From Candidatus Iainarchaeum sp. (GTDB taxonomy: Archaea > Iainarchaeota > Iainarchaeia > Iainarchaeales > CSSED10-239), in contig JAQVTI010000001.1 in NCBI GenBank assembly GCA_028700115.1, forward strand, positions 30,001 to 62,000: 32,000 nt of DNA, written 5' to 3'. Below are positions 5,256-31,993 of this stretch, in pieces (the first letter of the stretch is position 1; every line of letters begins with the position of its first letter). Below the pieces are notes generated by a model. That model searched no databases. It saw nothing but the letters and a program-made list of their open reading frames with translations, and was not told the DNA's origin. The position numbers and the translations under genes are program-made.

Positions 5256-5292
5256 AAATGGATATAAAATATATAAAAGGAGATGATCTAAT

Positions 5293-6487: not shown

Positions 6488-6488
6488 A

Positions 6489-8773: not shown

Positions 8774-8777
8774 ATAT

Positions 8778-10340
8778 TTATTTAAATATATTTTTTCTAA
8801 GAAGCTTTTGATAGGTTATTGAAAACCTATGAGCTTCATCTCTTATTTCTTGAATTAATTGTAAAGATTTATCTTTTCTAGAAAGCTTAATTCCTATTAA
8901 ATTATTAGGTTTAAATATAATCTCTTCTTTTTTTGCAATTGAAATTAAATCTATATTTTTTATATTTAAATTATCTAAAGCTTTTTTAGCAGAAGAAAGT
9001 TGACCTTTACCCCCATCTATTATAAATAAATCTGGAAAATTTTTTTGTTCTTCTAAAAGTTTTTTAAACTTCCTATAAGTAACTTCATAAATTGATGCAA
9101 AATCATTATTATCTTTAACAGTTTTTAATTTATATTTTCTATACCCTTTTTTATAAGGTTTTGCATTTTTATAACATGAAATCCCAGAAACTATATTTGT
9201 CCCAGATAAATGTGAAATATCGATACATTCTATGTGATAAGGAATATTTTTTAGGTTTAATGTTTTTTTTAAATCTTTAAGAATAAAATCTGTATTTATA
9301 ATATTTTCAAGAATATTTTCATAAACTAAATCAAGTAATTTTTTTTTATCTCCTTTTTTTGGAACTATAATTTTAATTTTTTTAGAATAAATCTTTTCTA
9401 GTTTAAAAATAATTTCATTAAAAATATTTTCTGGAAGAATTATTTCTTTAGGTAATGGATTTTCTAAATAAAAATTAAAAATAAAATTACTAAAATTAAC
9501 AAATCTATCTAAATTTAAAATAAATTCTTTTTTATTAATTAAATTTCCTTCAAAAACATTAAATAAATAAATATAAACTTTATCTTTATCTATATAATAA
9601 TTAAAAATATCTTCATTTAATTTTTTATTTCTTTCAATAATTTGTTTATTTTCTAAATATTTTATAGATTCGATCTTATTTTTTAAAACAAGAGCACTTT
9701 CAAAATTATTAATTTTAGAAAAATAAAACATTTGATTATTTAAATCTTTTAACAAAGAAGATGTATTACCTAAAAAAATTTGTTTAACTTCTTTAATTCT
9801 TTTATTATATTCAGAAATATTTTCTTTTCCAAAACAAACTCCATTACAAAGACCCATATAAAATCTAAAACAAGGATTTTTAGAAAGTTTATTACAAGTT
9901 CTAAGTTTAAAAATATTATTTAAAGTTTTAATAATATAATCTCTAGAATTTGCAGACACAAAAGGTCCAAAATAAGTACCTTTTTTAGATTTATCTCTTG
10001 AAACTAAAAGTCTTGGTATTTTTTCATCAGTTAAAAGTATATAAGCATATTTTTTATTATCTTTTAATTCAATATTAAATTTTGGTTTATATTTATTAAT
10101 TAAATTATTTTCTAAAATTAAAGACTCAATCTCAGTTTTAGTAACAATATAATCTAAAAAATAAATATTTTCAACCAAAAGAGAAGTCTTAATATTTTTT
10201 TTAGACTTTGAAAAATAAGATGATATTCTTTTTTTTAAATTTTTAGCTTTTCCAATATATATAATTTTATTATCTTTATTTTTAAAAATATAACAACCTG
10301 GTTTTTGGGAAATATTTTTTAAATCAATATCATTATTCAT
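8778..10340 (-). CDS. uvrC: excinuclease ABC subunit C (UvrC), short form without C-terminal (HhH)2 domain
   Basis: GIY-YIG nuclease N-terminus (GCYIFKNKDNKIIYIGKAKNLKKRISSYF). Central UVR-like helix pair (MFYFSKINNFESALVLKNKIESIKYL). RNase H-like endonuclease half (IECIDISH, IIDGGKGQL, RDEAHRFSI). The protein stops 16 residues after the conserved AHRF. Confidence 0.9.
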   Translation of the reverse strand: MNNDIDLKNISQKPGCYIFKNKDNKIIYIGKAKNLKKRISSYFSKSKKNIKTSLLVENIYFLDYIVTKTEIESLILENNLINKYKPKFNIELKDNKKYAYILLTDEKIPRLLVSRDKSKKGTYFGPFVSANSRDYIIKTLNNIFKLRTCNKLSKNPCFRFYMGLCNGVCFGKENISEYNKRIKEVKQIFLGNTSSLLKDLNNQMFYFSKINNFESALVLKNKIESIKYLENKQIIERNKKLNEDIFNYYIDKDKVYIYLFNVFEGNLINKKEFILNLDRFVNFSNFIFNFYLENPLPKEIILPENIFNEIIFKLEKIYSKKIKIIVPKKGDKKKLLDLVYENILENIINTDFILKDLKKTLNLKNIPYHIECIDISHLSGTNIVSGISCYKNAKPYKKGYRKYKLKTVKDNNDFASIYEVTYRKFKKLLEEQKNFPDLFIIDGGKGQLSSAKKALDNLNIKNIDLISIAKKEEIIFKPNNLIGIKLSRKDKSLQLIQEIRDEAHRFSITYQKLLRKNIFK

Positions 10341-10358
10341 AAAAAATCAATAATTTTT

Positions 10359-16700: not shown

Positions 16701-16721
16701 AAAAACACCTAAAATATTATT

Positions 16722-17690
16722 CTACACAATTCCAAAAATATGACCTAAAAAATAAATATAAAATATCAAAAGAGCAAAACCTTCTATATATGTTAATTTA
16801 TTATCTTGAATTACAAAGAAATAAATTAAAGTAGAAACAATTAACATAGGAATTCCAAAAGTTAAAAGTGAACTTGGAACAACTATTTTTCCAAAAAGAG
16901 AAGTTATTCCAATAACTCCTACTAGATTAAATATATTTGAACCTAAAACATTACCAATTGCAATTTCTGGTTTGTTTTTTCTTATAGCTTGTAAAGTAAC
17001 AACTAGTTCAGGAAGTGAAGTTCCTAAAGCAACTGCACTTATTGCAATTATATCAGTTGCAATTTTTAAAATTGAAGATATATTTAAAATTGAATCAACT
17101 ACATATTTGGCACCAAAATAAATTCCAGCACAACTTAAAATTAAAATAAATAAAGTTTTTAAAATATTTAATTTCTTTTTAGAATTTTCAATATCACTAA
17201 ATTCTTTTCTAAGTTCTTTATCTTTTGATGTTCTTGAAGAACTAATAATATTATAAATATAAAAAACTAATAAAACAAGACAAATTATAGTTTCTAGAAC
17301 AGTAAAAGTCTGATTAAAAAGCATTATACCTACAATAAAAGAAGTTGCAACTAAAAAAGGTAAATCTGAACTTAAAATATTATAATTTATCTTAATTGTT
17401 TTTCTATAAACTACAGCAGTAAGTCCCAAAACAAAAAATATATTTGTAATATTTGAACCAATTACAGTTCCTACACCAATTTCTGAAGCACCTTTTAAAA
17501 CAGAAAAAATAGATGATATAAGTTCTGGTAGAGATGTACCTATACTTACAATAATTATACCTATAACAAAAGCAGGAAGCCCAAAATAAACTCCAATTTT
17601 TTCAGCTGAATCAATAAAATAGTCAGATGATTTAATTAATAAAAATAATGATGCTAAAAAAACTATAATCCAAACTGCTAAACTAAACAT
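16722..17690 (-). CDS. Ca2+/cation antiporter, CaCA (YrbG/NCKX-like) family
   Basis: Two alpha-repeat signatures (GTSLPELISSI...GSNITNIFFVLG and GTSLPELVVTL...GSNIFNLVGVIG). About 10 hydrophobic helices separated by a charged central loop. Confidence 0.85.
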   Translation of the reverse strand: MFSLAVWIIVFLASLFLLIKSSDYFIDSAEKIGVYFGLPAFVIGIIIVSIGTSLPELISSIFSVLKGASEIGVGTVIGSNITNIFFVLGLTAVVYRKTIKINYNILSSDLPFLVATSFIVGIMLFNQTFTVLETIICLVLLVFYIYNIISSSRTSKDKELRKEFSDIENSKKKLNILKTLFILILSCAGIYFGAKYVVDSILNISSILKIATDIIAISAVALGTSLPELVVTLQAIRKNKPEIAIGNVLGSNIFNLVGVIGITSLFGKIVVPSSLLTFGIPMLIVSTLIYFFVIQDNKLTYIEGFALLIFYIYFLGHIFGIV

Positions 17691-17771
17691 ATATTTCTCA
17701 CTATATATTATTTAAATAATAAGTTTATATAGGTTATTGATTTAAAAGAAAAAAAAGAAAAAAAGAAGAAA

Positions 17772-20396
17772 TTAATTTTCTTCTAAAATAGCAGCTTGAG
17801 CTGCAGCAAGTTTTGCAATTGGAACTCTAAAAGGAGAACAACTCACATAGGTTAAGCCCAATTTATGACAGAATTTAACAGATTCAGGCTCTCCTCCATG
17901 CTCACCACAAATTCCAAGTTTTAAATTAGGATTCTTATTTAGTCCTTTTGCAATTGCAATTTGCATAAGTTGACCAACTCCATCTTGATCAATTGATTGG
18001 AAAGGATCTGTTTTATAAATTCCTAAAGAAACATATTGTTTTAAGAATTTACCAGAATCATCTCTTGAAAGCCCAAGACCCATTTGTGTTAAATCATTTG
18101 TACCAAATGAAAAAAATTCAGCATGCTCTGCAATCTTATCAGCTGTAAGTGCAGCTCTTGGAATTTCAATCATTGTTCCAATCTTATATTTAACTTCTTT
18201 TTCTTTCTCTGAAATTACTTCTTTAATAGTTTGTTCAATAATTTCTTTTTGTATTTCAAATTCTTTTGAATTACCAATCAAAGGAACCATAATTTCTGGA
18301 ACTATTTCTTGTCCAAGTTTTTCTGAAGCAATAATTGCAGCTTCAATTATAGCTCTTGTTTGCATCTTTGCAATCTCTGGATAAGTTATTGCAAGTCTAC
18401 AACCTCTATGTCCAAGCATAGGGTTAAATTCATGTAGATCTTCAATTTTTTCTTTTAATTTTTCTAAAGAAACATCCATATCTTTTGAAAGTTCAACTAT
18501 ATCATTTTCTTCTTTTGGTAAAAATTCATGTAAAGGAGGATCAAGTAATCTAATTGTTACAGGTCTATTTCCCATAGCCTCATAAATTCCAACAAAATCT
18601 TCTCTTTGCATAGGTAAAAGTTTATCTAATGCCTTTTGTCTTCCTTCAAGACTTTCAGACAAAATCATTTCTCTTACAGCCTTTATTCTATCTCCTTCAA
18701 AAAACATATGTTCAGTTCTACAAAGCCCAATTCCTTCTGCTCCAAAAGAAACTGCAACCTTTGCATCTTTTGGTGTATCTGCATTTGTTCTAACACCTAA
18801 CTTTCTATATTTATCAGAAAGAGACATAAGTTTTGCAAAAGAACCTTCCAGAGAAGGATTAACAACATCTAATTTACCTTCATAAACAACTCCTAAAGAA
18901 CCATCAATTGTAATAAAGTCTCCTTCTTTAAAAGATTTATCTCCAATAACTAACTTTTCTTGCTTATCATAAACTACAATCTCAGAAGACCCAGAAACAC
19001 ATGGCTTACCCATACCTCTTGCAACAACAGCTGCATGTGAAGTCATTCCTCCTCTTTGTGTTAAAATACCTTCAGCAGCATTCATACCTTTAATATCCTC
19101 AGGAGAAGTCTCTGTTCTTACTAAAATTACTTTATTTCCTTTTTCTTTTTCATCAAAAGCCTTATCTGCATCAAAAACAATTTTTCCAAAAACCGCACCT
19201 GGAGAAGCAGGAAGTCCTCTTGCAAGAACAGTTGCATTTTTAACTGCATTAGGATCTAATGATTTATGAAGTAATTGATCTAAAGATTTAGAATCAATTC
19301 TTAAAATTGCTTCCTTTTCATTAATTAAACCTTCCTCTAACATATCCATTGCAATTTGAACAGCAGCCTTTCCTGTTCTTTTACCATTTCTAGTTTGAAG
19401 CATATATAATTTGCCTTCTTGGATAGTAAATTCCATATCTTGCATATCTCTATAATGATTTTCTAGATTTTTATAAATTTTAACTAACTCATTATATTGC
19501 TCAGGCATTTTTTGTTCAAGAGTAGAAATATCTTCAGGAGTTCTAATTCCTGCAACTACATCTTCTCCTTGTGCATTTATTAGATATTCTCCATAAAATT
19601 TATTTTCACCAGTAGATGGATTTCTAGAAAAACAAACACCAGTTCCTGAAGTTTGCCCCATGTTTCCAAAAACCATAGCTTGAATATTTACAGCAGTTCC
19701 TAAAAGTCCTTCTATTTTATTTAACTTCCTATATTCAATTGCTCTTTTATTATTCCAAGATTTAAAAACTACATTTATAGAAAGTTCTAATTGCTTAAAT
19801 GGATCTTGTGGAAATTCTTTTCCTGTTTCTTTTAAAATAATTTTTTTATATCTATTTACTAATTCTTTTAGATTCTCAGCAGATAAATCAGTATCAAATT
19901 TTACATTATTTTCTTTTTTTATATTGTCTAAAGCTTCTTCAAATAAAGAATGCTTAACACCCATATCCACATCTCCAAACATTTGGATAAATCTTCTATA
20001 TGAATCATATGCAAATCTTTCATTTCCTGACTTTTTAGAAAGAGCTAAAACTGTTTTATCATTTAGTCCTAAGTTTAAAACAGTATCCATCATTCCAGGC
20101 ATAGAAACCGCTGCACCACTTCTTACAGATAAAAGTAAAGGATTTTCTTCTCCTCCAAAAAAAGTTTGGGTTTCTTGTTCAATTTTTTTTAAATTTTCTT
20201 TAATATCATTTTCTAAAGTTTCTGGCCAACTATTATTTTTAATATAAAAATCACAAGTTTGTGTTGTAATTGTAAATGCTGGAGGAACTGGAACATCTAG
20301 ATTTTTCATTTCAGCTATATTTGCACCTTTTCCACCTAAAATTTCTTTCATACTCTTATTACCTTCAGTAAAGTAATACACATATTTTTCATTCAT
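17772..20396 (-). CDS. ppdK: pyruvate, phosphate dikinase
   Basis: LGGKGANIAEM, phospho-His motif GGMTSHAAVVARGMG, GLCRTEHMFF, FSFGTNDLTQM, LGICGEHGGEP. Full-length at 874 aa, with a GGTGA SD 6 nt upstream of the ATG. Confidence 0.95.
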   Translation of the reverse strand: MNEKYVYYFTEGNKSMKEILGGKGANIAEMKNLDVPVPPAFTITTQTCDFYIKNNSWPETLENDIKENLKKIEQETQTFFGGEENPLLLSVRSGAAVSMPGMMDTVLNLGLNDKTVLALSKKSGNERFAYDSYRRFIQMFGDVDMGVKHSLFEEALDNIKKENNVKFDTDLSAENLKELVNRYKKIILKETGKEFPQDPFKQLELSINVVFKSWNNKRAIEYRKLNKIEGLLGTAVNIQAMVFGNMGQTSGTGVCFSRNPSTGENKFYGEYLINAQGEDVVAGIRTPEDISTLEQKMPEQYNELVKIYKNLENHYRDMQDMEFTIQEGKLYMLQTRNGKRTGKAAVQIAMDMLEEGLINEKEAILRIDSKSLDQLLHKSLDPNAVKNATVLARGLPASPGAVFGKIVFDADKAFDEKEKGNKVILVRTETSPEDIKGMNAAEGILTQRGGMTSHAAVVARGMGKPCVSGSSEIVVYDKQEKLVIGDKSFKEGDFITIDGSLGVVYEGKLDVVNPSLEGSFAKLMSLSDKYRKLGVRTNADTPKDAKVAVSFGAEGIGLCRTEHMFFEGDRIKAVREMILSESLEGRQKALDKLLPMQREDFVGIYEAMGNRPVTIRLLDPPLHEFLPKEENDIVELSKDMDVSLEKLKEKIEDLHEFNPMLGHRGCRLAITYPEIAKMQTRAIIEAAIIASEKLGQEIVPEIMVPLIGNSKEFEIQKEIIEQTIKEVISEKEKEVKYKIGTMIEIPRAALTADKIAEHAEFFSFGTNDLTQMGLGLSRDDSGKFLKQYVSLGIYKTDPFQSIDQDGVGQLMQIAIAKGLNKNPNLKLGICGEHGGEPESVKFCHKLGLTYVSCSPFRVPIAKLAAAQAAILEEN

Positions 20397-20466
20397 TGTA
20401 TTTCACCAAATTTATATATTTTTTAAAAAAATTTTTTTAGAATAAAACTAGTAATTAATAATAAAT

Positions 20467-20518
20467 ATATAAATATTTATAAAATAAACATATAAATATT
20501 TATAAAATCATATAAATA
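20467..20518. repeat. short AT-only direct repeats upstream of ppdK (ATATAAATATTTATAAAAT twice, plus a partial)
   Basis: Copies at 20467-20485 and 20490-20508, with a partial at 20510-20518. Contains the palindromic core AAATATTT, also present in the 24-bp array at 27077. Confidence 0.5.
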
Positions 20519-20539
20519 AAAAAAATAAAAAAAATGATT

Positions 20540-21184
20540 TTAATGAATAAAAACATCTTCAATTATAATATCTTCAACAGGCCAGTCTTGATGACCATCT
20601 TTTGAAGTAGTCTCTGCATTTTCAATTTGCATAACTACATCCATTCCAGAAACAACTTTTCCAAAAACAGCATAACCTGGATTTTTAGAATCTTTAAAAT
20701 CTAAAAAATCATTATCTACTGTGTTTATAAAAAATTGTGAAGTAGCTGAGTTTGGATCAGGTGTTCTTGCCATTGCAATTGTTCCTTTTTTATTACTAAG
20801 TCCAGTAGCTTGAGTTGTTTCTAGTAGTATAGGATCAAAATTATCTTTTTTTGTACCATCACTAAAAAAACCACCACCTTGAATCATAAAATCTTTAATT
20901 ACTCTATGAAATATTGTTTCATCATAAAAACCTACCTTTACATATTCTAAAAAATTAAAAACTGTAACAGGTGCATTTTTATCAAAAAGTTCAACTTCAA
21001 TATCTCCTTTATTTGTTCTAATTGTAACAAAAGTATTTTCACTTTCATTAACATCTAAACTTTTATTTTCATCCATATTTGTTCCCTCTATATCTTTACT
21101 TGTAGTTATTTTAAATATTGCAAAAATAATTGCAAGAACTAAAATAACACATAAAACATAAATTATAATTTTTGTAGTCTTCAT
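20540..21184 (-). CDS. cyclophilin-type peptidyl-prolyl cis-trans isomerase with N-terminal membrane anchor
   Basis: N-terminal TM segment IIIYVLCVILVLAIIFAIF, then the cyclophilin core FHRVIKDFMIQGGG, GTIAMAR, NSATSQFFIN, YAVFGKVVSGMDVV. Confidence 0.9.
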   Translation of the reverse strand: MKTTKIIIYVLCVILVLAIIFAIFKITTSKDIEGTNMDENKSLDVNESENTFVTIRTNKGDIEVELFDKNAPVTVFNFLEYVKVGFYDETIFHRVIKDFMIQGGGFFSDGTKKDNFDPILLETTQATGLSNKKGTIAMARTPDPNSATSQFFINTVDNDFLDFKDSKNPGYAVFGKVVSGMDVVMQIENAETTSKDGHQDWPVEDIIIEDVFIH

Positions 21185-21299
21185 TAAAAATCACTTTTTT
21201 TAATATATTATAATATATATAATTTAGAATGAAAATATATAAATAAACTCTTATTTTTATAAAAAATTACTAGTTTTATTCATATGAATTAAAATACAT

Positions 21300-22004
21300 A
21301 TGTTTAAATCTCCTTTTATGTATATAATATTTATGGATGAAAAAATAAATTTTGGAAAAGTTATCTTAAAAATCAAAAAAGGAAAACATTTTCTTCTAAA
21401 AATAGATAAAAGACTATTTTATAGACCAGGACAATACATTGATATTTATGAAATAAATGAAAGAAAAAAGATATTAGATAAAAGAGCATTTACTTTAGCA
21501 CAAAAAACAAATGAATATGAAACAGAAATTTATATTAGTCAAGTAGATAAAGGAAAATTCTCAAACATGCTTTCTAAACTAGAAGTTGGGGACACAATTT
21601 ATTTTTCAGATCCAGAAGGACTTTGCATACATCAAAGAACAAATAAAAATAAAATTATAATGATTGCTCTAGGAAGTGGAATTTCTACTTATAGATCTTA
21701 TATTTATAATCATATAGACAATAAAGACTTAGAATTTAATTTATTTTATGCAAACAAACATGAAGAAGATTTCTTTTTTAAACAAGACTTTTTAGAATTA
21801 GAAGAATATAAAAATAATTTTAAATTTTATCCAGTAGTTACTGAAGAAAAAAATTTATTTAAAGAAATGGATTTATTTCTATCTAAATATAAAAATTTAG
21901 AAGAATATGACATTTTAGTTTCTGGACCAATGAAGGCTAATCAAAAAATTATTGAGTTTTTAGAAAATAAAAAAATAAAAGCAGAAAATATCCTAATAGA
22001 CTAA
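21300..22004 (+). CDS. ferredoxin-NADP reductase-like FAD/NAD(P)-binding oxidoreductase
   Basis: PGQYIDI, RAFTLAQ (R-x-Y-S-type FAD motif), GDTIYFSDPEG, IIMIALGSGISTYRS (GTGIaP-like NAD(P) motif), ILVSGPMKAN (vCGP). Start uncertain, with Met1, Met7 and Met12 all possible. Confidence 0.55.
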   Translation: MFKSPFMYIIFMDEKINFGKVILKIKKGKHFLLKIDKRLFYRPGQYIDIYEINERKKILDKRAFTLAQKTNEYETEIYISQVDKGKFSNMLSKLEVGDTIYFSDPEGLCIHQRTNKNKIIMIALGSGISTYRSYIYNHIDNKDLEFNLFYANKHEEDFFFKQDFLELEEYKNNFKFYPVVTEEKNLFKEMDLFLSKYKNLEEYDILVSGPMKANQKIIEFLENKKIKAENILID

Positions 22005-22016
22005 AGATATTTATTT
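21985..22016 (+). repeat. left copy of an imperfect direct repeat bracketing the secreted-protein block; overlaps the true 3' end of the FNR-like gene
   Basis: AAAATATCCTAATAGACTAAAGATATTTATTT compared with 26949..26979 AAAATATACAAATAGACTAAGATATTTATTT gives 29 identities, 2 mismatches and 1 single-base indel, aligned by hand. Confidence 0.55.
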
Positions 22017-22025
22017 TTTAAAAAA

Positions 22026-22637
22026 TTAATTTATTGTACAAACTCCACCATTACAAGTATAACTTGTTCCTAAAGCAGAAGAACTTAAATAAGGATTTGG
22101 CATTTCTATACCCACTTCAAATAAATTTACTTCAGATGAAGCAGTTTGTTTTTTCACAAAAATATCTAAATCATAAGATCTACAATCCCCAATATCTGAA
22201 ACATCAATTGGACCTATAAAAAAACCATTTTCAAATAAACTTATAACTTCAGAATTATCAAAATAATAATTAACTCCATTAAAAACAGTATACTCTTCAG
22301 AAGTTACACTTGAATCAACCCCACAACCTTGATAAATATTTGCACCAATAAAAATTGCAGTCCCCCCATGTGCTTTATAAGTAATTCTACAACATTTATC
22401 TTCTGAAAAATTTAATTGATTTAATTCTTCTTCGGAACTTAAAGTAGAATTCCCTTGAGTGTTTATTGTATTTGTATTTAAACCACAATTTACAGAACAA
22501 ATAGTAGAATCATTAAATGAAATATCTCCTGTAACTTTTAAAACAATTGGTGCATCAAAATCTGTTATTGCAAAAACTGTTCCAAAACTTAAAATAAAAC
22601 TAAAAACAAAAAATATATTAAAAATTTTAAAATTCAC
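22026..22637 (-). CDS. secreted Cys-containing protein (203 aa), unknown function
   Basis: Signal peptide MNFKIFNIFFVFSFILSFGTVFA|ITDF. GTG start with GGTGAT 4 nt upstream. Shares a 38-bp upstream element with the pilin-like gene at 25175..26872. Confidence 0.5.
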   Translation of the reverse strand: MNFKIFNIFFVFSFILSFGTVFAITDFDAPIVLKVTGDISFNDSTICSVNCGLNTNTINTQGNSTLSSEEELNQLNFSEDKCCRITYKAHGGTAIFIGANIYQGCGVDSSVTSEEYTVFNGVNYYFDNSEVISLFENGFFIGPIDVSDIGDCRSYDLDIFVKKQTASSEVNLFEVGIEMPNPYLSSSALGTSYTCNGGVCTIN

Positions 22638-22657
22638 AAAATCACCTTATAAAACAT

Positions 22658-22695
22658 ATATATTTAATATTTATTAAGAAATAGTTTATAAAGGT
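22658..22695 (-). promoter_or_regulatory. 38-bp promoter/leader element, copy 1 (upstream of the 203-aa secreted protein gene)
   Basis: ATATATTTAATATTTATTAAGAAATAGTTTATAAAGGT is identical to 26897..26934. It contains a TTTATAAA TATA-like box about 47-54 nt upstream of the GTG start. Confidence 0.6.
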
Positions 22696-22705
22696 ATAGT
22701 ATATA

Positions 22706-25087
22706 TTATTCCTCTATATAATTAAAATCATAAGAAACTTCTTCCTTACAAAAATAAACATAAATAAAATCATATTTAGATTGACCATATTCATCTTCAA
22801 CTGTAAGTTTAATTTTTCTTTTATCACAAATATTTATTTCAAAAAGATCTTTTAAAATTCTTTTTCCATATAATAAATCTAAAACTTTATTTTCTTTAGA
22901 AAAATTAATTGGATTTAAAAAAATATTTTTTAAATTTTCATTTTTAAATTTATTAAAAACCCCAAAATTAAAATCAAAATAAGGATTTTGAATTATAAAA
23001 TTACAATCAGAACTTAAAAAAATATCTGAATAAGTTTCTTCCCAAACACAAGTAGTCTCCCCAATATTATTTATAAAAGAAGAAGTAAAAATTATAGGTT
23101 TTTTGTATGCATGATAAATTTTATTTTCTGGAGTTAAAATATCTACATCAAGATATTTCATTTTTATATATAACTCATCACTTGAAACTCTACCTTCTTC
23201 ATCTTCTCCTATAAGTGTAATTAAATGATTTCCAGGCATAATATTTAATTCTTGTGGGGTTGCAGAAAAATTACATTCAGAACTTAAAATAATTTGTTCT
23301 TTTTTATTTTCATCATAATCTTGTATCCATTCACAAATTACTTCCCCAGTAGGATCTTGATGATCTGAAATAAAATTAATTATATCTTCTTGATTATATT
23401 GAGTATTTGCAATAGGAGAAGAAATTGTTGCTAGATAAGGAACTCTACTTTGTAGATATGCAGTAATATATTCACCGCTTTCACTTAAAGCTTCAACTAC
23501 AACTTCAGTATCTTGTAAATTATTATAAGTGTGAGATGTTGTATCAAAAGTATAATCTAAAGGTAATCTTTGTAAATTATCATATTTACCATAAGGACTT
23601 ATTCCAAAAATTACATCATATTCAGTTGTATATAATGATGGAAGTCCATATCCTGTACTATTAATATCATACATTGTATTTGTTTCAAATCTTAATCCAG
23701 GATGATTTAATGTATCATCATAAGGTATACCATCAGGGTCATAAGTAATTGCATTATAAGGATACCAATATTCTATTTGATTTTCATCTACATGATAAAT
23801 AACAATACCCCCATAATAATTAGGATAATCTGGACTTCTAGATCCAAATAAATATTTATCTTGTGTATTATTTGAAGCAAATCTATTTTCTACTAAAAAA
23901 TATTCTCGATCATTCATCTTAGTTTCATCTTTTAAAACATAAGCTATTTGATATTGATCTTGATTATAAACATCATAAATACCAGCATCTTGAGAATCAA
24001 TTTCTTCAGCTTCTAACCAACCTAAAAACATTTTAGACCATGAATCAAAATTTATAGGATTATTCCCATAACCATAATTATTAGACATCATAGAAACACT
24101 ACCAAGCCCCACACCACCATTTCCTTGATTAAAAGGATCATGTGCATATAAATCTGGAAGACCTAAAATATGTGCAAACTCATGAGTAAAAGGAATAACT
24201 TCTGCTCTACAGTCTTCAGGATGATTTTGATCTTCAATCATATATTGACAATGAGTTGAATTTATCTTATTTGAAATAATAGCTGTATTCCCATAATAAA
24301 GCCCTTGAACAGAATAATTTGTAGTTCCATTAAAAAGTCTTACTTGGTCAGCAAACAAACCAAATCCTTCTTTTGTTCCTGATCTAATTATACCTATACC
24401 ATCTATTCTACCATCATTATCAGAATCATATTGACTAAAATCAACTAAGGAGTCCATAATTTCAATAGTATCTGGAATTAATTCAAATACAGTTGCACTT
24501 GTTTGGGAATAATATTCATAAGTATGAGGTAATAACACCCAATCATAAACATCAAATGTAAGATTTAAATCCCCATAAGATTCATGTAAATAATATTGGT
24601 TTACACTTATTCCAGAACCATCTAAATAGTTTTCAGAATTTAAAAGTGCCTCAAAATCTGAAGGAGTTATTTCTAAATCATGTGGTTTATCAGAAAATTC
24701 AACCATAAAAATAGGAAACCTTACATTTCCTTCTAAAGGTGAAGTCCCCCAAACATTTTCAACTGTAGTTACAATTGTATCTTTATTTCTAGGAATTACT
24801 TTTTTTAAATCAGAAATAACTTCTTGCATAGAACAATAATCTGGAGTATATGAAATATCTCCAAAAACTAAAGGTTGACAAAAATTATTATCTATATATA
24901 TATTTTCTTGTGAGATTTCAAAAATATTAGAATTATCTAAATTAATAGTGATATTTGGATTAATATTTACAATATTATTATTTTCTTCAGAAATATTTAT
25001 TTGTTGTACATTATAAGCATAAAGATAGTTAGAAAATAAAAAAAAACTTATAATTAAAATAATATAAAAAATATAATATTTTTTCAT
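22706..25087 (-). CDS. secreted M6-family (immune inhibitor A-like) zinc metalloprotease with tandem C-terminal Cys-pair domains
   Basis: Signal peptide MKKYYIFYIILIISFFLFSNYLYA. HEFAHILGLPDLY (24146-24184), which is the M6 signature HExxHxxGxPDxY. FPIFMVEFSD upstream block. Two repeated C-terminal modules (GEVICEWIQ...LSSECNF and GETTCVWEE...LSSDCNF). Confidence 0.72.
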   Translation of the reverse strand: MKKYYIFYIILIISFFLFSNYLYAYNVQQINISEENNNIVNINPNITINLDNSNIFEISQENIYIDNNFCQPLVFGDISYTPDYCSMQEVISDLKKVIPRNKDTIVTTVENVWGTSPLEGNVRFPIFMVEFSDKPHDLEITPSDFEALLNSENYLDGSGISVNQYYLHESYGDLNLTFDVYDWVLLPHTYEYYSQTSATVFELIPDTIEIMDSLVDFSQYDSDNDGRIDGIGIIRSGTKEGFGLFADQVRLFNGTTNYSVQGLYYGNTAIISNKINSTHCQYMIEDQNHPEDCRAEVIPFTHEFAHILGLPDLYAHDPFNQGNGGVGLGSVSMMSNNYGYGNNPINFDSWSKMFLGWLEAEEIDSQDAGIYDVYNQDQYQIAYVLKDETKMNDREYFLVENRFASNNTQDKYLFGSRSPDYPNYYGGIVIYHVDENQIEYWYPYNAITYDPDGIPYDDTLNHPGLRFETNTMYDINSTGYGLPSLYTTEYDVIFGISPYGKYDNLQRLPLDYTFDTTSHTYNNLQDTEVVVEALSESGEYITAYLQSRVPYLATISSPIANTQYNQEDIINFISDHQDPTGEVICEWIQDYDENKKEQIILSSECNFSATPQELNIMPGNHLITLIGEDEEGRVSSDELYIKMKYLDVDILTPENKIYHAYKKPIIFTSSFINNIGETTCVWEETYSDIFLSSDCNFIIQNPYFDFNFGVFNKFKNENLKNIFLNPINFSKENKVLDLLYGKRILKDLFEINICDKRKIKLTVEDEYGQSKYDFIYVYFCKEEVSYDFNYIEE

Positions 25088-25150
25088 ATATATATAAATA
25101 AATAGAAGTATATAAACTTTACTACTTAACTAAACTAAGTGAAATAAATA

Positions 25151-25181
25151 AAAATAAAAAAACCTTAAAAAAATCTAAGGT
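25151..25181 (-). terminator. hairpin plus T-tract at the 3' end of the pilin-like gene
   Basis: On the minus strand, ACCTTA-(8 nt)-TAAGGT (25162-25181, includes the TAG stop) is followed by TTTTTTATTTT. Confidence 0.35.
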
Positions 25182-26872
25182 GTTGTTTTTCCAATAAATA
25201 CACATAAACTACCATTTGTATTTGTTACACAACTAGGAGATAAACTATATCTTTCAAAAATATCTGGATGATTTATATAAACTTTTAGAGAACCATAAGA
25301 AGAAATATCTTCTCCTTCTAATTTATTTATACATACATAAATTTCTCCATTAGAGTTTATAACTTTTTTACAAAACGCATAATTTGGAGTAATATTATTA
25401 GATATATCCCAAGTAGATATTTCAAAATCAGGATCCCCAACAGATGGTGTTCCAGTAAATTCAAATTTATAAATTCCTTCTGAATTACAATTAAATTGAT
25501 ATGTGTGATCTCCAGAACTTACATCCCCTAAACTATAAGATGAATTACAACTATTTCCTACTAAACAACAATTATTTGTTGGATTCGAAGTAATTGAATT
25601 AATAACATTTAAATTTAAATTATAAGTATCAACACCTTCTCCATTAACAGTAATTAAAAAATTATTATTAAGTAAAGCAGAACTATTTAATGGATTCACA
25701 CTTAATTCAAAACTAAAAATACCCCCATTATCACAATCAATATTACAAATACCTTCTTCTCCAAAATTACAAACCCCATCTCCACAACATGGTGAACAAT
25801 TAAGTGCATATGGGTCATTATGACAAATAGAACAATAAGATATAGAACTTTGACAAATATCATTAGTAATATTTAAACAAGCTAAAAGACCACAATCATC
25901 TGGACAAGTCCCATTTGCTCTTTCTAAATCATCACAAACTAAATCCCCACAACTACAATCTTCTAAACAATTAGAATAATTTTCTCCATCTTCACAAATT
26001 GCATTCCCACAACATATACCAGTAATATTTCTTATATCACAAACACCTGTTGTTTGACCACTTATAATTTTACAATATGCTTCTTGACAATCACCTAATT
26101 CAGAACCTAAACTAATACAATCAGAATTATTTTGACAAGTATTATCAAAAGGCCTACAATCCCCACCCAAACAATATCCATCTTCTGAAGGATCTGATTT
26201 AATTATACAATATGTTCCATCTACTAATTTTTTTTCTACACATCTACCCTCTTCACAATTCCATTTATAACAAGGATTAGGAACACCAAAATCATTTAAA
26301 CAATCAGATGGTTGAACACAATCAAAATCAGAAACACATTCTCCATCTATACAAACCCCAAAAGAACAAGAAACTCCATTTGTTAAATTTTTTTCAACAC
26401 AAGTTCCTTCAATAGAACATTCATAAATAGTACAGTCATTAGAAGTATCTCCACATTGATTAAATTCCAAATAAGGATTACATTCAGAACTATTAGCTAC
26501 ACAAACCCCATTTACACAAGTTCCAGGATTATTTAAAGAAGTTGTACAATTACCAGAAGTTAATAAAGTCCCAACACAATTTCCATTTTCATTACAATAA
26601 TCTAATATACATTCATTATCTTCATGTATAGAACAATCATCATTAGAATCACATTCAAAATCATCATAATTAGGAGTACCCATATCACCAGTATCATTTA
26701 GAAAATCAGAAAAAGAATTTGAAGTACTACTAATATCTGTTGCTTCTTGTGTTTTTTTATTAATATTATTTAAATAAAAACTCCCAAGAATAATACCTCC
26801 AATTATTAAAATCCCTAAAATTATTAAAACTTCAATAGAAACTTGCCCTTTTAATTTAATTTTTTTTTTCAA
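25175..26872 (-). CDS. archaeal type IV pilin-like (class III signal peptide) surface protein with a large Cys-rich repeat ectodomain
   Basis: N-terminus MKKKIKLKG|QVSIEVLIILGILIIGGIILG is a basic stretch, then a KG|Q prepilin-peptidase-type site, a QxSxE motif and a hydrophobic helix. By my count 56 Cys in 565 aa: three ~55-aa 8-Cys modules, then three C-G-[DN]-x-[IV]-C-x(7-9)-C-x2-D-C modules. TTG start with GGTGA 7 nt upstream. Confidence 0.7.
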   Translation of the reverse strand: MKKKIKLKGQVSIEVLIILGILIIGGIILGSFYLNNINKKTQEATDISSTSNSFSDFLNDTGDMGTPNYDDFECDSNDDCSIHEDNECILDYCNENGNCVGTLLTSGNCTTSLNNPGTCVNGVCVANSSECNPYLEFNQCGDTSNDCTIYECSIEGTCVEKNLTNGVSCSFGVCIDGECVSDFDCVQPSDCLNDFGVPNPCYKWNCEEGRCVEKKLVDGTYCIIKSDPSEDGYCLGGDCRPFDNTCQNNSDCISLGSELGDCQEAYCKIISGQTTGVCDIRNITGICCGNAICEDGENYSNCLEDCSCGDLVCDDLERANGTCPDDCGLLACLNITNDICQSSISYCSICHNDPYALNCSPCCGDGVCNFGEEGICNIDCDNGGIFSFELSVNPLNSSALLNNNFLITVNGEGVDTYNLNLNVINSITSNPTNNCCLVGNSCNSSYSLGDVSSGDHTYQFNCNSEGIYKFEFTGTPSVGDPDFEISTWDISNNITPNYAFCKKVINSNGEIYVCINKLEGEDISSYGSLKVYINHPDIFERYSLSPSCVTNTNGSLCVFIGKTTP

Positions 26873-26896
26873 AATAACTCACCAAAAATATATAAA

Positions 26897-26934
26897 ATAT
26901 ATTTAATATTTATTAAGAAATAGTTTATAAAGGT
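26897..26934 (-). promoter_or_regulatory. 38-bp promoter/leader element, copy 2 (upstream of the pilin-like Cys-rich protein gene)
   Basis: Exact 38/38 match to 22658..22695, at a similar distance from the start codon (24 vs 20 nt to the proximal edge). Confidence 0.6.
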
Positions 26935-26948
26935 TACATAAATTTTAA

Positions 26949-26979
26949 AAAATATACAAATAGACTAAGATATTTATTT
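26949..26979 (+). repeat. right copy of the bracketing direct repeat; reads as a degenerate duplicate gene end (..KNIQID-stop vs ..ENILID-stop)
   Basis: See the left copy. It lies 14 nt beyond promoter copy 2. Confidence 0.55.
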
Positions 26980-27076
26980 ATCTACAAATTAAAAATATTA
27001 TTCTAATTAATTAAATATATTTATATACCTTAAATTATTTTAATTTATTTTTAGTAAAAAAGCAAAAACATATTTT

Positions 27077-27161
27077 GATTAAAAATATATACAAATATTT
27101 GATTAAAAATATATACAAATATTTGATTAAAAATATATACAAATATTTGATTAAAAATATA
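27077..27161. repeat. tandem repeat, 24-bp unit GATTAAAAATATATACAAATATTT, 3 full copies plus a 13-nt partial
   Basis: Identical units at 27077-27100, 27101-27124 and 27125-27148, with a partial at 27149-27161. Each unit junction forms the perfect 10-bp palindrome CAAATATTTG (27092-27101, 27116-27125, 27140-27149). Confidence 0.85.
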
Positions 27162-27238
27162 ATTAAATAATAAATAAAAAAAAATATTAAAAATCAAAAA
27201 AACATTTTTTTTGACTTAAAATATAAGATTTAAAAAAA

Positions 27239-28768
27239 CTATAAATCTTTAAAACTAATTTTACCAAAATAAAGATCTTTTGAAACCTCTAGAAGTTTAT
27301 CTACAGATATTCTTTTTTGATCAAAGCTATCTCTATCTCTTATAGTTACAGTTTTTTCTTCTAGAGTATCATGATCTACAGTTATACAGAAATTACAACC
27401 AATTTCATCCATTCTAGCATATCTTTTTCCAATTGATCCTTTTTCATCAAAATTAATTTCAAAAAGATCATATGAATTTTCAACTAATTTAGAATGTAAA
27501 TCCTTAGAAAGCTCTAACAAACCATCCTTTTTAACTAATGGGAAAACAGACATAAAATATGGTGATATTTTAGGTTTTAATTTCAAAACATTTCTTAGAT
27601 CTTTTCCATCATTGTTAACATCAATTACTTCAAAGTTATTCTCTAATATTAAATATAATAATCTACCTAAACCAATTGAAGAAACTTCTAGAACATGAGG
27701 CAATATTTCCTTACCATCTTCTTTTACTGACAGAGTAGATTTTGAACCATCAGCATGTGCTTTTAAGTCATGGTCTGTTCTGTAGTTTATACAAAATAGT
27801 TCTACCCATTCCTTATTTGTCTTAACCTCTAAATCAAATGTTTGTTTTGAATAAAAGGCTCTATCTTCTTTAGAAACTTCTCTAAATCTTATATTTTCGT
27901 GTTTAATTCCTATTTTTTCTAAAAAATCATTCATTAAATAAGTATAATATGTAATAATATCTCCAAATGAGATATTTTGTTCTTTAACTTCTTTTACTGT
28001 ATAGTCTTTTTCAGAATCATCTTTTAGAAGTCTATATCTTATTATTTTATTATAATAAGGCTCTAGATTAACATCATCAATTTTATCCTTATCAAAAAAT
28101 AGTTCAGTTTCTAATTGTTCAAACTCTCTTGCTCTTAAAAGTCCATTTCTTGGAGAAATTTCATTTCTATACACTAAACCATGTTGTGAGATTGCAATTG
28201 GTAGGCCTATTCTTGAAGTTTTATATAATCTTAAAAAATCTAAAAATATAGATTGACAAGATTCTCCTCTTAAATAACCTTTTTGTCCTTTTTTTGCACC
28301 TACTATAATATTTGCCATTAAATTAAATCTTGAAACATTATCAATTCTAGTTTTACATTTAGTACATAAAACCTCATTTTCTTCTAATAACTTTTCATAT
28401 TCTTCATTTGTTAAGTTTTCAGGAACTTCTTTATCTAATTGATTTGATAAAACTTTATCAAGTCTATATACTTCACCACATTTTTTACAAGTAGAGATTG
28501 GATCATCAAAGTTTCCTAAATGCCCTGAAGCTCTAAAAACATCTTCTGGTAGAATTAATGAACCTGAAATTTCTAAAAAGTTGTTTTTTCTTACAAGTTC
28601 TTTTCTCCAAAAATCAATAATATTTAATCTAATTTTATTTCCTATTGGACCATAATCAAAAAATCCAGAAAAATTTTTTGAATAAATCTCAGCTGAAGGG
28701 AAATATATAGATTTATTTGAAATTAATTCATTTAGTCTTTCAATTCTTTTGCTTTCTTCTAAAACCAT
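27239..28768 (-). CDS. glyS: glycine--tRNA ligase, archaeal/eukaryotic dimeric type
   Basis: FFDYGPIGNKIR, SGHLGNFDDP, FNLMANIIVG, YRNEISPRNGLLRAREFEQLETELF (class II motif 2), SIGKRYARMDEIGCNFCITVD. Confidence 0.9.
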   Translation of the reverse strand: MVLEESKRIERLNELISNKSIYFPSAEIYSKNFSGFFDYGPIGNKIRLNIIDFWRKELVRKNNFLEISGSLILPEDVFRASGHLGNFDDPISTCKKCGEVYRLDKVLSNQLDKEVPENLTNEEYEKLLEENEVLCTKCKTRIDNVSRFNLMANIIVGAKKGQKGYLRGESCQSIFLDFLRLYKTSRIGLPIAISQHGLVYRNEISPRNGLLRAREFEQLETELFFDKDKIDDVNLEPYYNKIIRYRLLKDDSEKDYTVKEVKEQNISFGDIITYYTYLMNDFLEKIGIKHENIRFREVSKEDRAFYSKQTFDLEVKTNKEWVELFCINYRTDHDLKAHADGSKSTLSVKEDGKEILPHVLEVSSIGLGRLLYLILENNFEVIDVNNDGKDLRNVLKLKPKISPYFMSVFPLVKKDGLLELSKDLHSKLVENSYDLFEINFDEKGSIGKRYARMDEIGCNFCITVDHDTLEEKTVTIRDRDSFDQKRISVDKLLEVSKDLYFGKISFKDL

Positions 28769-28906
28769 AAAGTATCACTTAAATTTAATATATATTTTAG
28801 AAGTAAAGATTATATAAATATATATTATTTATAAAGTATTTGGTATATTAATTATTTATAAAATAAGCTAATTTTTTAAAGTTTTATTTATATATTTTAT
28901 TATATT

Positions 28907-28988
28907 GCAGGGGTTCCCGAGTGGTCAAAGGGGCACGGCTTAGGACCGTGTGCTTAGTGCTTCGCAGGTTCGAATCCTGCCTCTTGCA
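28907..28988 (+). tRNA. tRNA-Leu (anticodon UAG), type II with long variable arm, no encoded CCA
   Basis: Folded by hand: acceptor GCAGGGG/CTCTTGC (two G-U pairs), D arm CCC-GAGTGGTCAAA-GGG, anticodon stem CACGG/CCGTG with loop CTTAGGA, 13-nt variable region, T arm GCAGG-TTCGAAT-CCTGC, discriminator A. Followed by CTTTTT. It is a sharp GC-rich island in AT-rich DNA. Confidence 0.9.
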
Positions 28989-29009
28989 CTTTTTAAATTC
29001 TGAAAATTT

Positions 29010-30032
29010 ATGAGAACATTTTTTAATTTTAAAGAAACTAATTATAATCCAGATAAATATCTAGATTTAATAAAAGAAGAAATCAAAGATTATAAATTTA
29101 ATACATTTAACTTAGGTATATCTATTCCTTCTGAAAAAACTATAGATGAAAAAGAAGATATTAAACTTAATTTTCAAAAACAACTAACATCTCTAATTGA
29201 AGAAAAACTAAATATTAAAAAAAGAAATGAATATGGAGATGTAAATATTGTAGTTGATTTTAATTATAATAGAATAGATTATAATATAACTCCAGTTTAT
29301 GTTTATGGAATTTATAATAAATTACAAAGAAACCTACCTCAAACAATAGATTATTGTTTTAAATGTAAAGGAAAGGGTTGTAAGCTTTGTGATTATAAAG
29401 GAGTTATAAACAAAACTTCTATTCAGGAGAAAATTAATTCTTATTTTAAAGAAATTTTTAAAAATGAAGACAATAAATTCCATGGTTCAGGAAGAGAAGA
29501 CAAAGATGTTTTAATGCTTGGAAATGGTAGAGAGTTTGTTTTAGAACTAATTAATCCTAAACTAAGAGAAATTAGTTTAGAAGAACTAAATAAACTTTTA
29601 GACAAAATTAATCTTGAAGAAAAAGATGTTTTACAAATAAGTAATCTTAGTTTTTGTGAAAAATCTAAAATTAAAGAAATAAAAGAAGCTAAACATTTCA
29701 AATCATATAGAGCAATTGTTTCTTGTGAAGAAAAGATTATACAAGATAAATTAAACACATTAGAAAAAAACAAAATAATAGAAATTATTCAGAAAAATCC
29801 AAAAAGAATGAAAAAAAGCAGAGCAAATATTGAAAGAAAAAGAACTTGTGAAATTATTAATTATAATATTATTAATGAAAATGAATTTGAACTAGAACTA
29901 AAAGCAGAAGCAGGACTTTATGTTAAAGAATTTATTTCTGGGGATAATGAACTTACAAAACCTTCTATTTCAGAAATTATAGAAAATAAATGTATATGTA
30001 AACAACTAGATGTAATTTACATACATAGATAA
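29010..30032 (+). CDS. pus10: tRNA pseudouridine(54/55) synthase Pus10, short form
   Basis: CFKCKGKGCKLCDYKG zinc motif. Catalytic block GSGREDKDVLMLGNGREFVLEL (GREDvDvRmLG.GRPF). AGLYVKEFISGD...TKPS (aGtYIKElvsGD..rT.Ps). Confidence 0.85.
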   Translation: MRTFFNFKETNYNPDKYLDLIKEEIKDYKFNTFNLGISIPSEKTIDEKEDIKLNFQKQLTSLIEEKLNIKKRNEYGDVNIVVDFNYNRIDYNITPVYVYGIYNKLQRNLPQTIDYCFKCKGKGCKLCDYKGVINKTSIQEKINSYFKEIFKNEDNKFHGSGREDKDVLMLGNGREFVLELINPKLREISLEELNKLLDKINLEEKDVLQISNLSFCEKSKIKEIKEAKHFKSYRAIVSCEEKIIQDKLNTLEKNKIIEIIQKNPKRMKKSRANIERKRTCEIINYNIINENEFELELKAEAGLYVKEFISGDNELTKPSISEIIENKCICKQLDVIYIHR

Positions 30033-30034
30033 AG

Positions 30035-30074
30035 TTACCCTGGACCCTACAGAAATATTAAAAGTCCAGGGTAA
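30035..30074. terminator. GC-rich perfect 11-bp inverted repeat between convergent pus10 and ogg; candidate bidirectional terminator or structured element
   Basis: TTACCCTGGAC (30035-30045) and GTCCAGGGTAA (30064-30074) with an 18-nt loop. Starts 3 nt after the pus10 stop and is followed by the T-rich GTTTATTTATTTT on the plus strand. Confidence 0.45.
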
Positions 30075-30080
30075 GTTTAT

Positions 30081-31143: not shown

Positions 31144-31497
31144 TTATTTTTTTAAAGACTTCTCAATAGATTTAACACCATACTCAAAAGAAAAACCATC
31201 CATATTCAAAGAAACTTTTCTTTTTTCAAGTTCATCTAGAAACTCTCTATAAGACAAACCAGAAATTTCTGCTCCTTCTGATAAATTAATTTCTCTTTTT
31301 TTATAAGCTTCAATTGCTTTTTTTAGTTTATACTCAGAAATATCATTTTCTATTAAATGCCTAATATACTCAGACTCACTTATGTTTTTTTCTTTAGAGA
31401 TTAAATATACACTCTCCATAACAGAGTCTTTTAATCTTAAAGTCTTAACATTCATTTTACTACAATCTTTATATTCTTTTGATTTCATAAAAACCAC
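31144..31497 (-). CDS. putative antitoxin-like DNA-binding protein: ribbon-helix-helix segment fused to a UPF0175-like domain
   Basis: RHH-like KTLRLKDSVMESVYLISKEKNISESEYIRHLIEND, then UPF0175-like AIEAYKKREINLSEGAEISGLSYREFLDELEKRKVSL. Start uncertain: GTG at 31497, ATG at 31488 or ATG at 31455. Confidence 0.5.
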   Translation of the reverse strand: MVFMKSKEYKDCSKMNVKTLRLKDSVMESVYLISKEKNISESEYIRHLIENDISEYKLKKAIEAYKKREINLSEGAEISGLSYREFLDELEKRKVSLNMDGFSFEYGVKSIEKSLKK

Positions 31498-31993
31498 ATA
31501 TTTCTTTTAAATAATTTTTAGGTATAGAATCACAAATAATTCTTAATTTATCTTTTAATCCATTTTTCTTAATTTTTTTATGTTTATACAAATAAAACAT
31601 AAACTCAACAATGTTTGAACATAATATATTATTTTTCACACAAAAACTATAAGGCCTACCATTATCAATAAACACAATTGCCTTAATTTCTTTTGCAAGC
31701 AAGATACTAAAATATTCTCCTGAATTTTTAGATACTTGAAATGGTAAATTTTTATTAACTAAAGTTTTTGGTTGTTTAATAAGTATTTTTTTATCTTCAA
31801 CTAATTTTAATAAAAATCTAATATCAAATGGAAGATATAAACTTTTGTCTTTAAAATATGTTATTTCTTCATAAACCTTTTTAGTCATCACTAAATCATA
31901 ATGTTCTAAAAAGATATTTATTAAATTAGTTTTAACTAGATGAATATAAAAAGAGGAATCTAATATAGCTAAAGGTTTTTTTGAAATAACCAT
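31469..31993 (-). CDS. PIN-like nuclease domain protein (DUF3368-type), putative toxin
   Basis: LAILDSSFYIHL (N-terminal Asp), KKVYEEI (acidic residue), SGEYFSILLAKEIKAIVFIDNGRPYSF (GE..a..LA.e....lliDd..aR). Sits next to a UPF0175-like gene, the usual partner family. Confidence 0.55.
   Translation of the reverse strand: MVISKKPLAILDSSFYIHLVKTNLINIFLEHYDLVMTKKVYEEITYFKDKSLYLPFDIRFLLKLVEDKKILIKQPKTLVNKNLPFQVSKNSGEYFSILLAKEIKAIVFIDNGRPYSFCVKNNILCSNIVEFMFYLYKHKKIKKNGLKDKLRIICDSIPKNYLKEICGFYEIKRI

Follow-up and report, generated by a model that had tools for sequence, protein, structure and literature searches.

How did three co-oriented genes for putatively exported proteins come to lie between the end of an oxidoreductase gene and what reads as a second, decayed copy of that same end? 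The question is posed by a 32,000-nt stretch of DNA from Candidatus Iainarchaeum sp., a very small archaeon of the DPANN group (GCA_028700115.1, 193-kb contig JAQVTI010000001.1, positions 30,001-62,000; GC content 23.1%), referred to here as the window, on which all coordinates below are based. The three open reading frames (ORFs) between the two repeat copies, all on the minus strand, encode a 203-residue secreted protein, an M6 metalloprotease and a 565-residue Cys-rich protein, and a preliminary description of this locus had interpreted the flanking repeats as attL and attR sites left by site-specific integration into the 3′ end of the neighboring FNR-like gene. Building from a comparison with a sister genome, we propose that the block at ~22025-26966 is a lineage-specific 4.9-kb insertion with a history of recombination followed by deletion, an account in which we place, taken as a whole, a middling degree of confidence. 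The features on which the argument turns are as follows.

21300-22004, plus strand: gene for an FNR-like oxidoreductase, 234 aa, with Pfam FAD_binding_6 and NAD_binding_1 domains; its last six codons and stop belong to the left repeat copy
21985-22016, plus strand: left repeat copy (R-left), comprising the FNR 3′ end (ENILID), the stop codon and a T-rich spacer; the original copy, lying inside the 91%-identical block of homology to the sister genome L021, which extends to ~22030
22026-22637, minus strand: gene for a 203-aa protein, putatively secreted, with a Sec-type N-terminal hydrophobic segment and 8 Cys
22706-25087, minus strand: gene for an M6 (InhA-like) zinc metalloprotease, 793 aa, with a signal peptide and HEFAH at residue 302
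25175-26872, minus strand: gene for a protein of 565 aa, rich in Cys (56 residues), with a putative class III (prepilin-like) signal of archaeal type, KGQ/VSIEVL
26947-26966, plus strand: proximal part (a′) of the right repeat copy (R-right), a degenerate copy of the final 20 nt of the FNR ORF (17/20 matches), with which the insert ends
27239-28768, minus strand: gene for glycyl-tRNA synthetase (GlyRS), the conserved right-hand anchor of the variable locus; 95% amino acid identity to L021 and 61% to two further relatives, L002 and L007

The repeat itself is readily recovered. Global alignment of 21985-22016 with 26949-26979 yields exactly the 29 identities, 2 mismatches and single-base gap reported in the preliminary description, and R-right reads KNIQID-stop within a 366-nt non-coding spacer (26873-27238) that separates the 565-aa ORF from the GlyRS gene. 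Under +1/-2 scoring the pair obtains a score of 23 and ranks 12th among the direct repeats of the window, and this score was reached in 21 of 24 shuffles with local composition maintained and in 2 of 24 dinucleotide shuffles. Under composition-weighted scoring it attains 32 bits and ranks 4th, a level reached in 3 of 36 shuffles; in the real window, 32-34 bits are also scored by three direct pairs that link unrelated genes and by one inverted pair. The composition-matched shuffling that had been suggested as a check on the repeat thus tells against it, in that comparable matches arise in shuffled sequence and the pair does not rise above chance across the window. The proximal half of R-right also resembles the unit of a nearby tandem repeat (17/19 matches), and when folded as a hairpin or terminator the repeat shows no significant stability (-2.4 kcal/mol; z = -0.2). 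The repeat attains significance only when a sister genome is used to locate the insertion junctions by independent means.

This sister genome, L021, is a 131-kb ENA contig that was fetched through a GlyRS protein search, its GlyRS being the 95%-identical ortholog. It matches the window at ~91% nucleotide identity across 16719-22035 and 27158-30079, with protein identities of 88% for FNR, 91.5% for the peptidyl-prolyl isomerase (PPIase) and 94.7% for GlyRS. The gene order in L021 is Pus10-GlyRS-290aa(wHTH)-219aa(DUF6036)-FNR-PPIase-PPDK, where wHTH denotes a winged helix-turn-helix protein and PPDK pyruvate phosphate dikinase; the winged-helix (MarR/TrmB) matches of the 290-aa protein stay below threshold, and the 219-aa protein belongs to the DUF6036 nucleotidyltransferases. 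No trace of the 203, M6 or 565 genes was found in L021 by tblastn. Moreover, the protein collection searched holds no M6 ortholog of between 46% and 100% identity, and the block therefore appears to be absent from the organism that L021 represents. L021 carries a single copy of the repeat, located at the 3′ end of its FNR gene, which likewise ends in ENILID, and the left copy in the window is accordingly the true gene end, as had been claimed. As to the simple empty site that the preliminary description had proposed to seek among relatives, L021 has one repeat copy and no block, but the DUF6036 and wHTH genes stand there instead.

More distant relatives place the locus in a variable interval. 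GlyRS-anchored loci from GTDB and JGI metagenomes gave only relatives of at most 61% identity, namely two Iainarchaeota metagenome-assembled genomes (MAGs), L002 and L007 (GlyRS 61% identical), both collinear with the window along its full 32 kb. All three share the order Dfx-Ogg-Pus10-GlyRS-[X]-PPIase-fibrillarin-Nop5-RNase HII-...-L15e, in which X is one Hsp20 gene in both L002 and L007. The content of the GlyRS-PPIase interval thus varies from Hsp20 in these two genomes, to wHTH, DUF6036 and FNR in L021, to the three-gene block and FNR in the window. At the distance of L002 and L007 the FNR-like gene itself falls in the variable segment, and these genomes therefore cannot define the junctions. 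No homologs of the FNR-like protein were found in GTDB genomes, a separate word-indexed search returned the protein itself alone, and per-gene divergence around the block gave no recombination-tract signal.

With respect to the junctions, homology to L021 on the left passes the FNR stop codon and the ATATTTATTTTT string that follows it, and fades at ~22017-22035, where gene 203 has its stop codon. Strong homology is regained on the right from 27158, and the DNA that leads up to this point retains a series of traces of the 290-aa gene.

26967-27027, plus strand: distal part of R-right (26967-26979), running on into degenerate sequence left from inside the 290-aa wHTH gene; matches L021 9986-10050, where the gene is intact
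27036-27066, minus strand: trace of the 5′ end of the 290-aa gene (start codon and earliest codons), reduced to a stub of 6 codons; assigned by sequence match to L021
27074-27161, minus strand: perfect tandem array of 24 nt x 3.7, matching the promoter of the lost 290-aa gene, which is single copy in L021

The match between 26967-27027 and L021 9986-10050 scores 27.3 bits, compared to 15.9 +/- 1.8 for shuffles (0/500 reach it) and 15.5 on the wrong strand, and BLAST aligns the region of the remnant at 77.6% identity over 98 nt. Window positions 27036-27185 in turn match the start and promoter of the 290-aa gene in L021, and the unit of the array, TTTGATTAAAAATATATACAAATA, is repeated 3.7 times without a mismatch. 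At the protein level, tblastn found no remnants of the L021 290-aa and DUF6036 proteins in the window; it is only the DNA-level remnant that is significant. Because the remnants in the spacer are collinear with the 290-aa gene, this gene was present in the ancestor of the window, and the block therefore stands in place of the DUF6036 gene and the 3′ two-thirds of the 290-aa gene. Judged from its match to L021, the tandem array is the orphaned promoter of the 290-aa wHTH gene, apparently amplified after the gene itself was lost.

Directly adjacent to these traces, 26947-26966 looks essentially unrelated to the orthologous L021 sequence in a four-way alignment. The 20-mer at the end of the FNR ORF has exactly one other match at <=3 mismatches on both strands of the window (64 kb), where 0.02 are expected, and this sole extra match ends at 26966, the final base before L021 homology resumes. 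Only 0.4% of real window 20-mers match the 200 nt around the left junction as well (empirical P 0.004). In addition, the matches in R-left and R-right are in register with a common ATATTTATTT string, and R-right contains GACTAA, as does the FNR end of the window itself, while L021 has GATTAG at this site, such that two window-specific bases are shared by the copies. We consider the duplication of the FNR end to be probably real, though it is not demonstrable from the window alone. The description of R-right as a decayed duplicate is consequently upheld for its first 18-20 nt and set aside for the distal portion (26967-26979), which is orthologous to the interior of the 290-aa gene.

The sequence in L021 that matches the window from 26967 onward lies 1.17 kb beyond the repeat, with the DUF6036 and wHTH genes intervening. 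The 12-mer ATATTTATTTTT is found in exactly two copies on that strand of L021, one directly after the FNR stop codon and the other inside the 290-aa gene. These two copies bound the 1.17-kb segment that is missing from the window, in which one hybrid copy is left. Taken together, the absence of the block from L021, the remnants of the wHTH gene in the window and the far-side copy of the FNR end lead us to interpret the block as a lineage-specific insertion, at the strength given above, which would have brought its three genes, complete from promoter to stop codon, into the short spacer downstream of the FNR-like gene.

A further and far stronger repeat, which was missed by the preliminary description, concerns the interior of the block. 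Positions 22658-22695 and 26897-26934 form a perfect 38-nt direct repeat of 54 bits, a score that no shuffle reaches, and both copies have the appearance of promoters.

22658-22695, minus strand: putative promoter copy 1, the 38-nt repeat with BRE/TATA elements (CCTTTATAAAC...) and leader, upstream of the 203 gene
26897-26934, minus strand: putative promoter copy 2, the identical 38-mer, upstream of the 565-M6 operon

On the coding strand the repeat reads (A/T)ACCTTTATAAACTATTTCTTAATAAATATTAAATATAT. Its B recognition element (BRE)/TATA segment and leader are positioned at an equal distance upstream of a GGTGA ribosome-binding site and a GTG/TTG start in the 203 and 565 genes, and identical promoters of this kind would divide the block into two transcription units, 565-M6 and 203. 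No extra copies of the R repeat, the 38-nt promoter or the tandem unit were found in any of the loci retrieved, one of which is on a different contig from the same MAG. As a separate observation, the M6-565 pair is bracketed by the 38-nt copies, and recombination between them would delete the pair.

These end states are consistent with the following course of events. Cassette DNA would have recombined at the FNR 3′ end and terminator through a single Campbell-type crossover within a homologous stretch of ~30 nt, which would have duplicated the target (the FNR end along with the ATATTTATTTTT string) as R-left and R-right. As to the enzyme, we propose host recombination in preference to a dedicated integrase, given that no recombinase domain was detected in the ORFs scanned, att arms have no room, codon and k-mer content is native and viral contigs yielded no relatives. 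A second event, deletion between the two 12-nt ATATTTATTTTT direct repeats, would then have removed the DUF6036 gene along with two-thirds of the wHTH gene at its 3′ end, fusing R-right to the interior of the 290-aa gene, and the orphaned promoter of that gene would later have been amplified to give the 24-nt tandem array. The cassette itself would be transcribed as two units, 565-M6 and 203, from its identical 38-nt promoters.

Several other explanations must be weighed against this history. Classic site-specific integration, in which the FNR 3′ end serves as attB and R-left and R-right as attL and attR, with an integrase either since lost or supplied in trans, would account for direct repeats at both ends, for the retention of the 3′ end of the target gene, and for a sister genome that has one repeat copy and lacks the block, with the junction coinciding with the repeat. 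We nonetheless regard it as unlikely. Pfam scans of the 26 window ORFs of >=100 aa (3 in the block and 23 others) detected no recombinase, transposase or Cas1 domains, such that the earlier statement that the block lacks an integrase is correct and extends to the ORFs scanned across the 32 kb. The gap between R-left and the stop codon of gene 203 is 9 nt and that between the 565 promoter and R-right is 12 nt, spacing that could accommodate neither att arms nor an integrase gene since lost. The composition of the block is also native: its GC content at third codon positions (0.05-0.07) and synonymous Kullback-Leibler divergence (0.03-0.08) are both within the range of the window, and its 4-mer deviation of 29.2 is below the 37.1 +/- 1.2 expected from its Cys/Asn/Ser-rich proteins in the codon usage of the flanks, so that the comparison of block and flanks for which the preliminary description had called reveals nothing distinct. 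Furthermore, the cargo is a pair of genes conserved on DPANN chromosomes and found elsewhere beside ribosomal-protein genes, and no relatives of the promoter 38-mer, the repeat or the M6 gene were found in viral contigs. What survives of the attL/attR interpretation is the insertion relative to L021 and the coincidence of its ends with the repeats; the missing integrase, the lack of space for att arms and the native codon usage speak against the remainder, and nothing points to a dedicated mobile element or integrase as the maker of the insertion. A one-step replacement of the DUF6036 gene and part of the 290-aa gene, whether illegitimate or microhomology-mediated, would treat the resemblance at 26949-26966 as a product of chance in AT-rich DNA. 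This is attractive in that the repeat is not significant window-wide and unrelated genes are joined by pairs just as strong, the distal half of R-right descends from the 290-aa gene while its proximal half matches the local tandem unit at 17/19 positions, and the repeat has no significant hairpin (z = -0.2). Chance, however, would have to produce the single extra match to the FNR-end 20-mer in 64 kb of both strands, at an expectation of 0.02, ending at the very base of the junction, in register with ATATTTATTT and with two window-specific bases in common with R-left, a resemblance to the left-junction region that just 0.4% of real 20-mers equal. We therefore judge this explanation to be improbable, to about the same extent as site-specific integration. 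A one-step replacement by DNA that already bore the duplication would be another possible history.

An assembly artefact, with the block misplaced by a metagenome assembler at short repeats, is scarcely credible. It is true that the Logan unitigs (k=31) are interrupted at the perfect 38-nt repeat, that look-ups with the exact proteins returned just short unitigs ending at repeats, and that all of the assemblies found come from one lineage, comprising two NCBI MAG records and the Logan unitigs of run SRR22315503. Against this, two separate MAG assemblies give the same order over all junctions, with 8 single-nucleotide polymorphisms in 7.9 kb. The second of these, L016 (GCA_028691725.1, JAQUYT010000035.1), derives from the same population, covers 19468-27347 with 8 substitutions and no indels (99.9% identity), and includes the two R copies, the pair of 38-nt promoter copies and the tandem array. 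Logan unitig L001 likewise spans FNR, R-left and gene 203, unitig L012 spans the promoter, 565 and M6, and an assembler would not be misled by a repeat as short and imperfect as R. The history of insertion and deletion that we prefer faces its own difficulties. The repeat, judged window-wide alone, is not convincing, the duplication proper is partial in that the distal 13 nt of R-right (26967-26979) are ancestral 290-gene sequence, and the left junction is resolved no more finely than ~22017-22035. The case stands on one sister genome and ~20 informative bases, and no intermediate genome, with the block alongside intact DUF6036 and 290-aa genes, was found among the relatives. The nearest M6 homolog, as a guide to the donor, is only 46% identical, and the block could instead be ancestral and have been lost from L021 via recombination between the repeats. 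As for a more general form of the preferred history, in which cassettes for host-interaction surface proteins in streamlined DPANN genomes, running from promoter to stop codon and carrying a portable promoter, would enter terminator spacers beside gene 3′ ends without an integrase, via target-duplicating repeats of 12-31 nt, we consider it highly doubtful at this stage.

Turning to the gene products, the preliminary assignments of an FNR-like protein, an M6 peptidase and a Cys-rich protein with a class III signal are sustained by Pfam, with a sub-cut-off score in the last case. The FNR-like ORF exceeds the cut-offs for both PF00970 (29.5 bits) and PF00175 (36.1 bits). The M6 protein matches PF05547 at 25.3 bits (cut-off 22) over residues 155-355, with HEFAH at 302 followed by ILGLPDLY, and 514 homologs were found, the nearest being 46% identical, with M6 as the annotation given to homologs. 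The 565-aa protein scores 19.0 bits against PF04021 (E = 0.0013; cut-off 23.7), aligned over profile positions 2-27 of 27. The 203-aa protein has no Pfam match, and its AlphaFold model, built without an alignment, is unusable (mean pLDDT, predicted local distance difference test, of 35.6); a weak homolog is encoded in the DPANN genome L014, two genes from an M6 gene. A larger duplication within the block was tested by comparing the 203 and 565 proteins, which show no similarity. The block products are probably exported to the cell surface.

Within the 565 gene, 6 of the 8 differences between the window and L016 fall in a 370-nt stretch (26287-26655), and all six are nonsynonymous, E73G, V173F, P188L, L192S and G196C among them. 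This clustering could reflect strain microdiversity or diversifying selection in a Cys-rich surface protein.

The pairing of the 565 and M6 genes extends beyond this lineage. In other DPANN archaea (L014, L015, L017, L018, L019 and L020), M6 genes adjoin a gene for a protein with a pilin-like N-terminus, in either order, and this N-terminus takes the form K(G/A)Q/xSxExL...GSFYLSxVN. The class III motif is conserved in the M6 neighbors of L014, L017, L018, L019 and L020 (four or five genomes, given the near-identity of L019 and L020); the L015 contig includes just the C-terminal end of the neighboring gene, and the pilin-like N-terminus is not visible. The contexts of the pair differ, and several lie among ribosomal-protein genes, as in S2-TrmB-M6-...-L7Ae-S28e-L24e. 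Since the pairing recurs in DPANN, the two genes form an old functional association, and the pair is probably a surface-displayed or pilus-associated protein that works with a secreted zinc protease. The preliminary description had suggested a role in attachment or attack, and a function of the pair in host contact may be envisioned, the sole added support being the recurrence of the pairing. A literature search found nothing on a pilin-like/M6 pair or on elements of this type in Iainarchaeota. A second M6 paralog (46% identity) is present on another contig of the same MAG, at 230-2578 of L013 (GCA_028691725.1 JAQUYT010000015.1), where it adjoins a radical-SAM gene cluster, with no pilin-like gene in the 229 nt available upstream.

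In terms of known protein families, the M6 protein resembles Bacillus immune inhibitor A and Vibrio PrtV in its PF05547 domain, HEFAHxxGxPDxY motif, predicted secretion and C-terminal extension domains, and differs from them in being archaeal and, in DPANN, in being consistently encoded beside a pilin-like protein with a class III signal. The 565-aa protein, for its part, resembles archaeal type IV pilin-like proteins (PF04021) at its N-terminus, in which KGQ/VSIEVL precedes a hydrophobic helix and which is conserved in its homologs, but its score is below the cut-off, and its C-terminal part of ~500 aa, in a protein with 56 Cys, matches no known domain.

The locus as a whole can likewise be set beside known systems. 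Integrative elements and genomic islands of the tyrosine-recombinase type form attL and attR at the 3′ end of a target gene, and archaeal integrases of the SSV and pNOB8 types usually do so at tRNA genes. As in these elements, imperfect direct repeats bracket the block, one of them is the intact 3′ end of the target, and a relative without the block has a single copy. In contrast, there is neither an integrase nor arms, the target is the end of a protein-coding gene with its terminator spacer, the repeat is ~31 nt and in part pre-existing flank, and the cargo, native in codon usage, includes no genes of mobile elements. A second comparison is provided by flexible genomic islets and replacement hot spots, given that the GlyRS-PPIase interval holds different genes in each relative. 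Such islets, however, are usually swapped by double crossover in flanking core genes without duplication of a target, whereas the far junction here bears a duplicate of the FNR end. The bounding of the missing 1.17-kb segment by the ATATTTATTTTT pair in L021 further resembles microhomology-mediated deletion, an event that we infer in this instance from the end states only. On present evidence, we describe the locus as a repeat-flanked genomic islet with a history of insertion and deletion, and not as a new kind of mobile element.

Contact with host cells is believed to be a requirement of DPANN archaea, and little is known about the ways in which their surface repertoires change. Against this background, the pilin-like/M6 module is a gene pair conserved in DPANN, yet it is present here and absent in a sister at ~91% flank identity. 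The surviving scars permit a stepwise reconstruction in which target duplication, microhomology deletion of a wHTH/nucleotidyltransferase pair and amplification of an orphan promoter would have followed one another. The locus thereby supplies specific junction sequences and flags the pilin-like/M6 pair as a candidate host-interaction module. An integrase-independent route for cassettes of this kind, if true, would allow strain-specific surface repertoires to arise without classical mobile elements.

Other differences in gene content were apparent along the same DNA. L021 has a Fic-domain gene at 5573-6556, between Ogg and Pus10, that is absent from the window. It is flanked at 5502-5537 and 6561-6596 by copies of a GC-rich hairpin (TTACCCTGGAC...GTCCAGGGTAA; -17 to -21 kcal/mol, z -3 to -4.8), of which the window has one copy at 30037-30072. 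The Fic gene was considered as a second direct-repeat insertion and rejected, as the hairpin copies are inverted (38/40 matches to the reverse complement); similarity beyond the hairpins is not significant, and there is no support for a recurrent target-duplication mechanism. Between Dfx and Ogg, L021 also contains an extra pair of genes at 4246-4846, encoding a 92-aa protein and a 112-aa ParE-like toxin, with no flanking repeat seen, where the window has 6 nt.

Relative to the L007/L002 backbone, the window has additional genes at 2620-13169 (TtuA-like, GH3, DUF2817 and a bacterial-type UvrB-UvrC-UvrA cluster) and at 16722-20396 (a Na/Ca exchanger and pyruvate phosphate dikinase, both shared with L021). 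The strongest direct repeat of the window (63 bits; 10552-10701 and 11576-11721) lies within the UvrA gene and probably reflects the two ABC ATPase halves of UvrA. Finally, a UPF0175/DUF3368 pair, likely a small antitoxin with a PIN-like toxin, adjoins the desulfoferrodoxin gene and is conserved in both genomes, at 31144-31993 in the window and 2963-3812 in L021.

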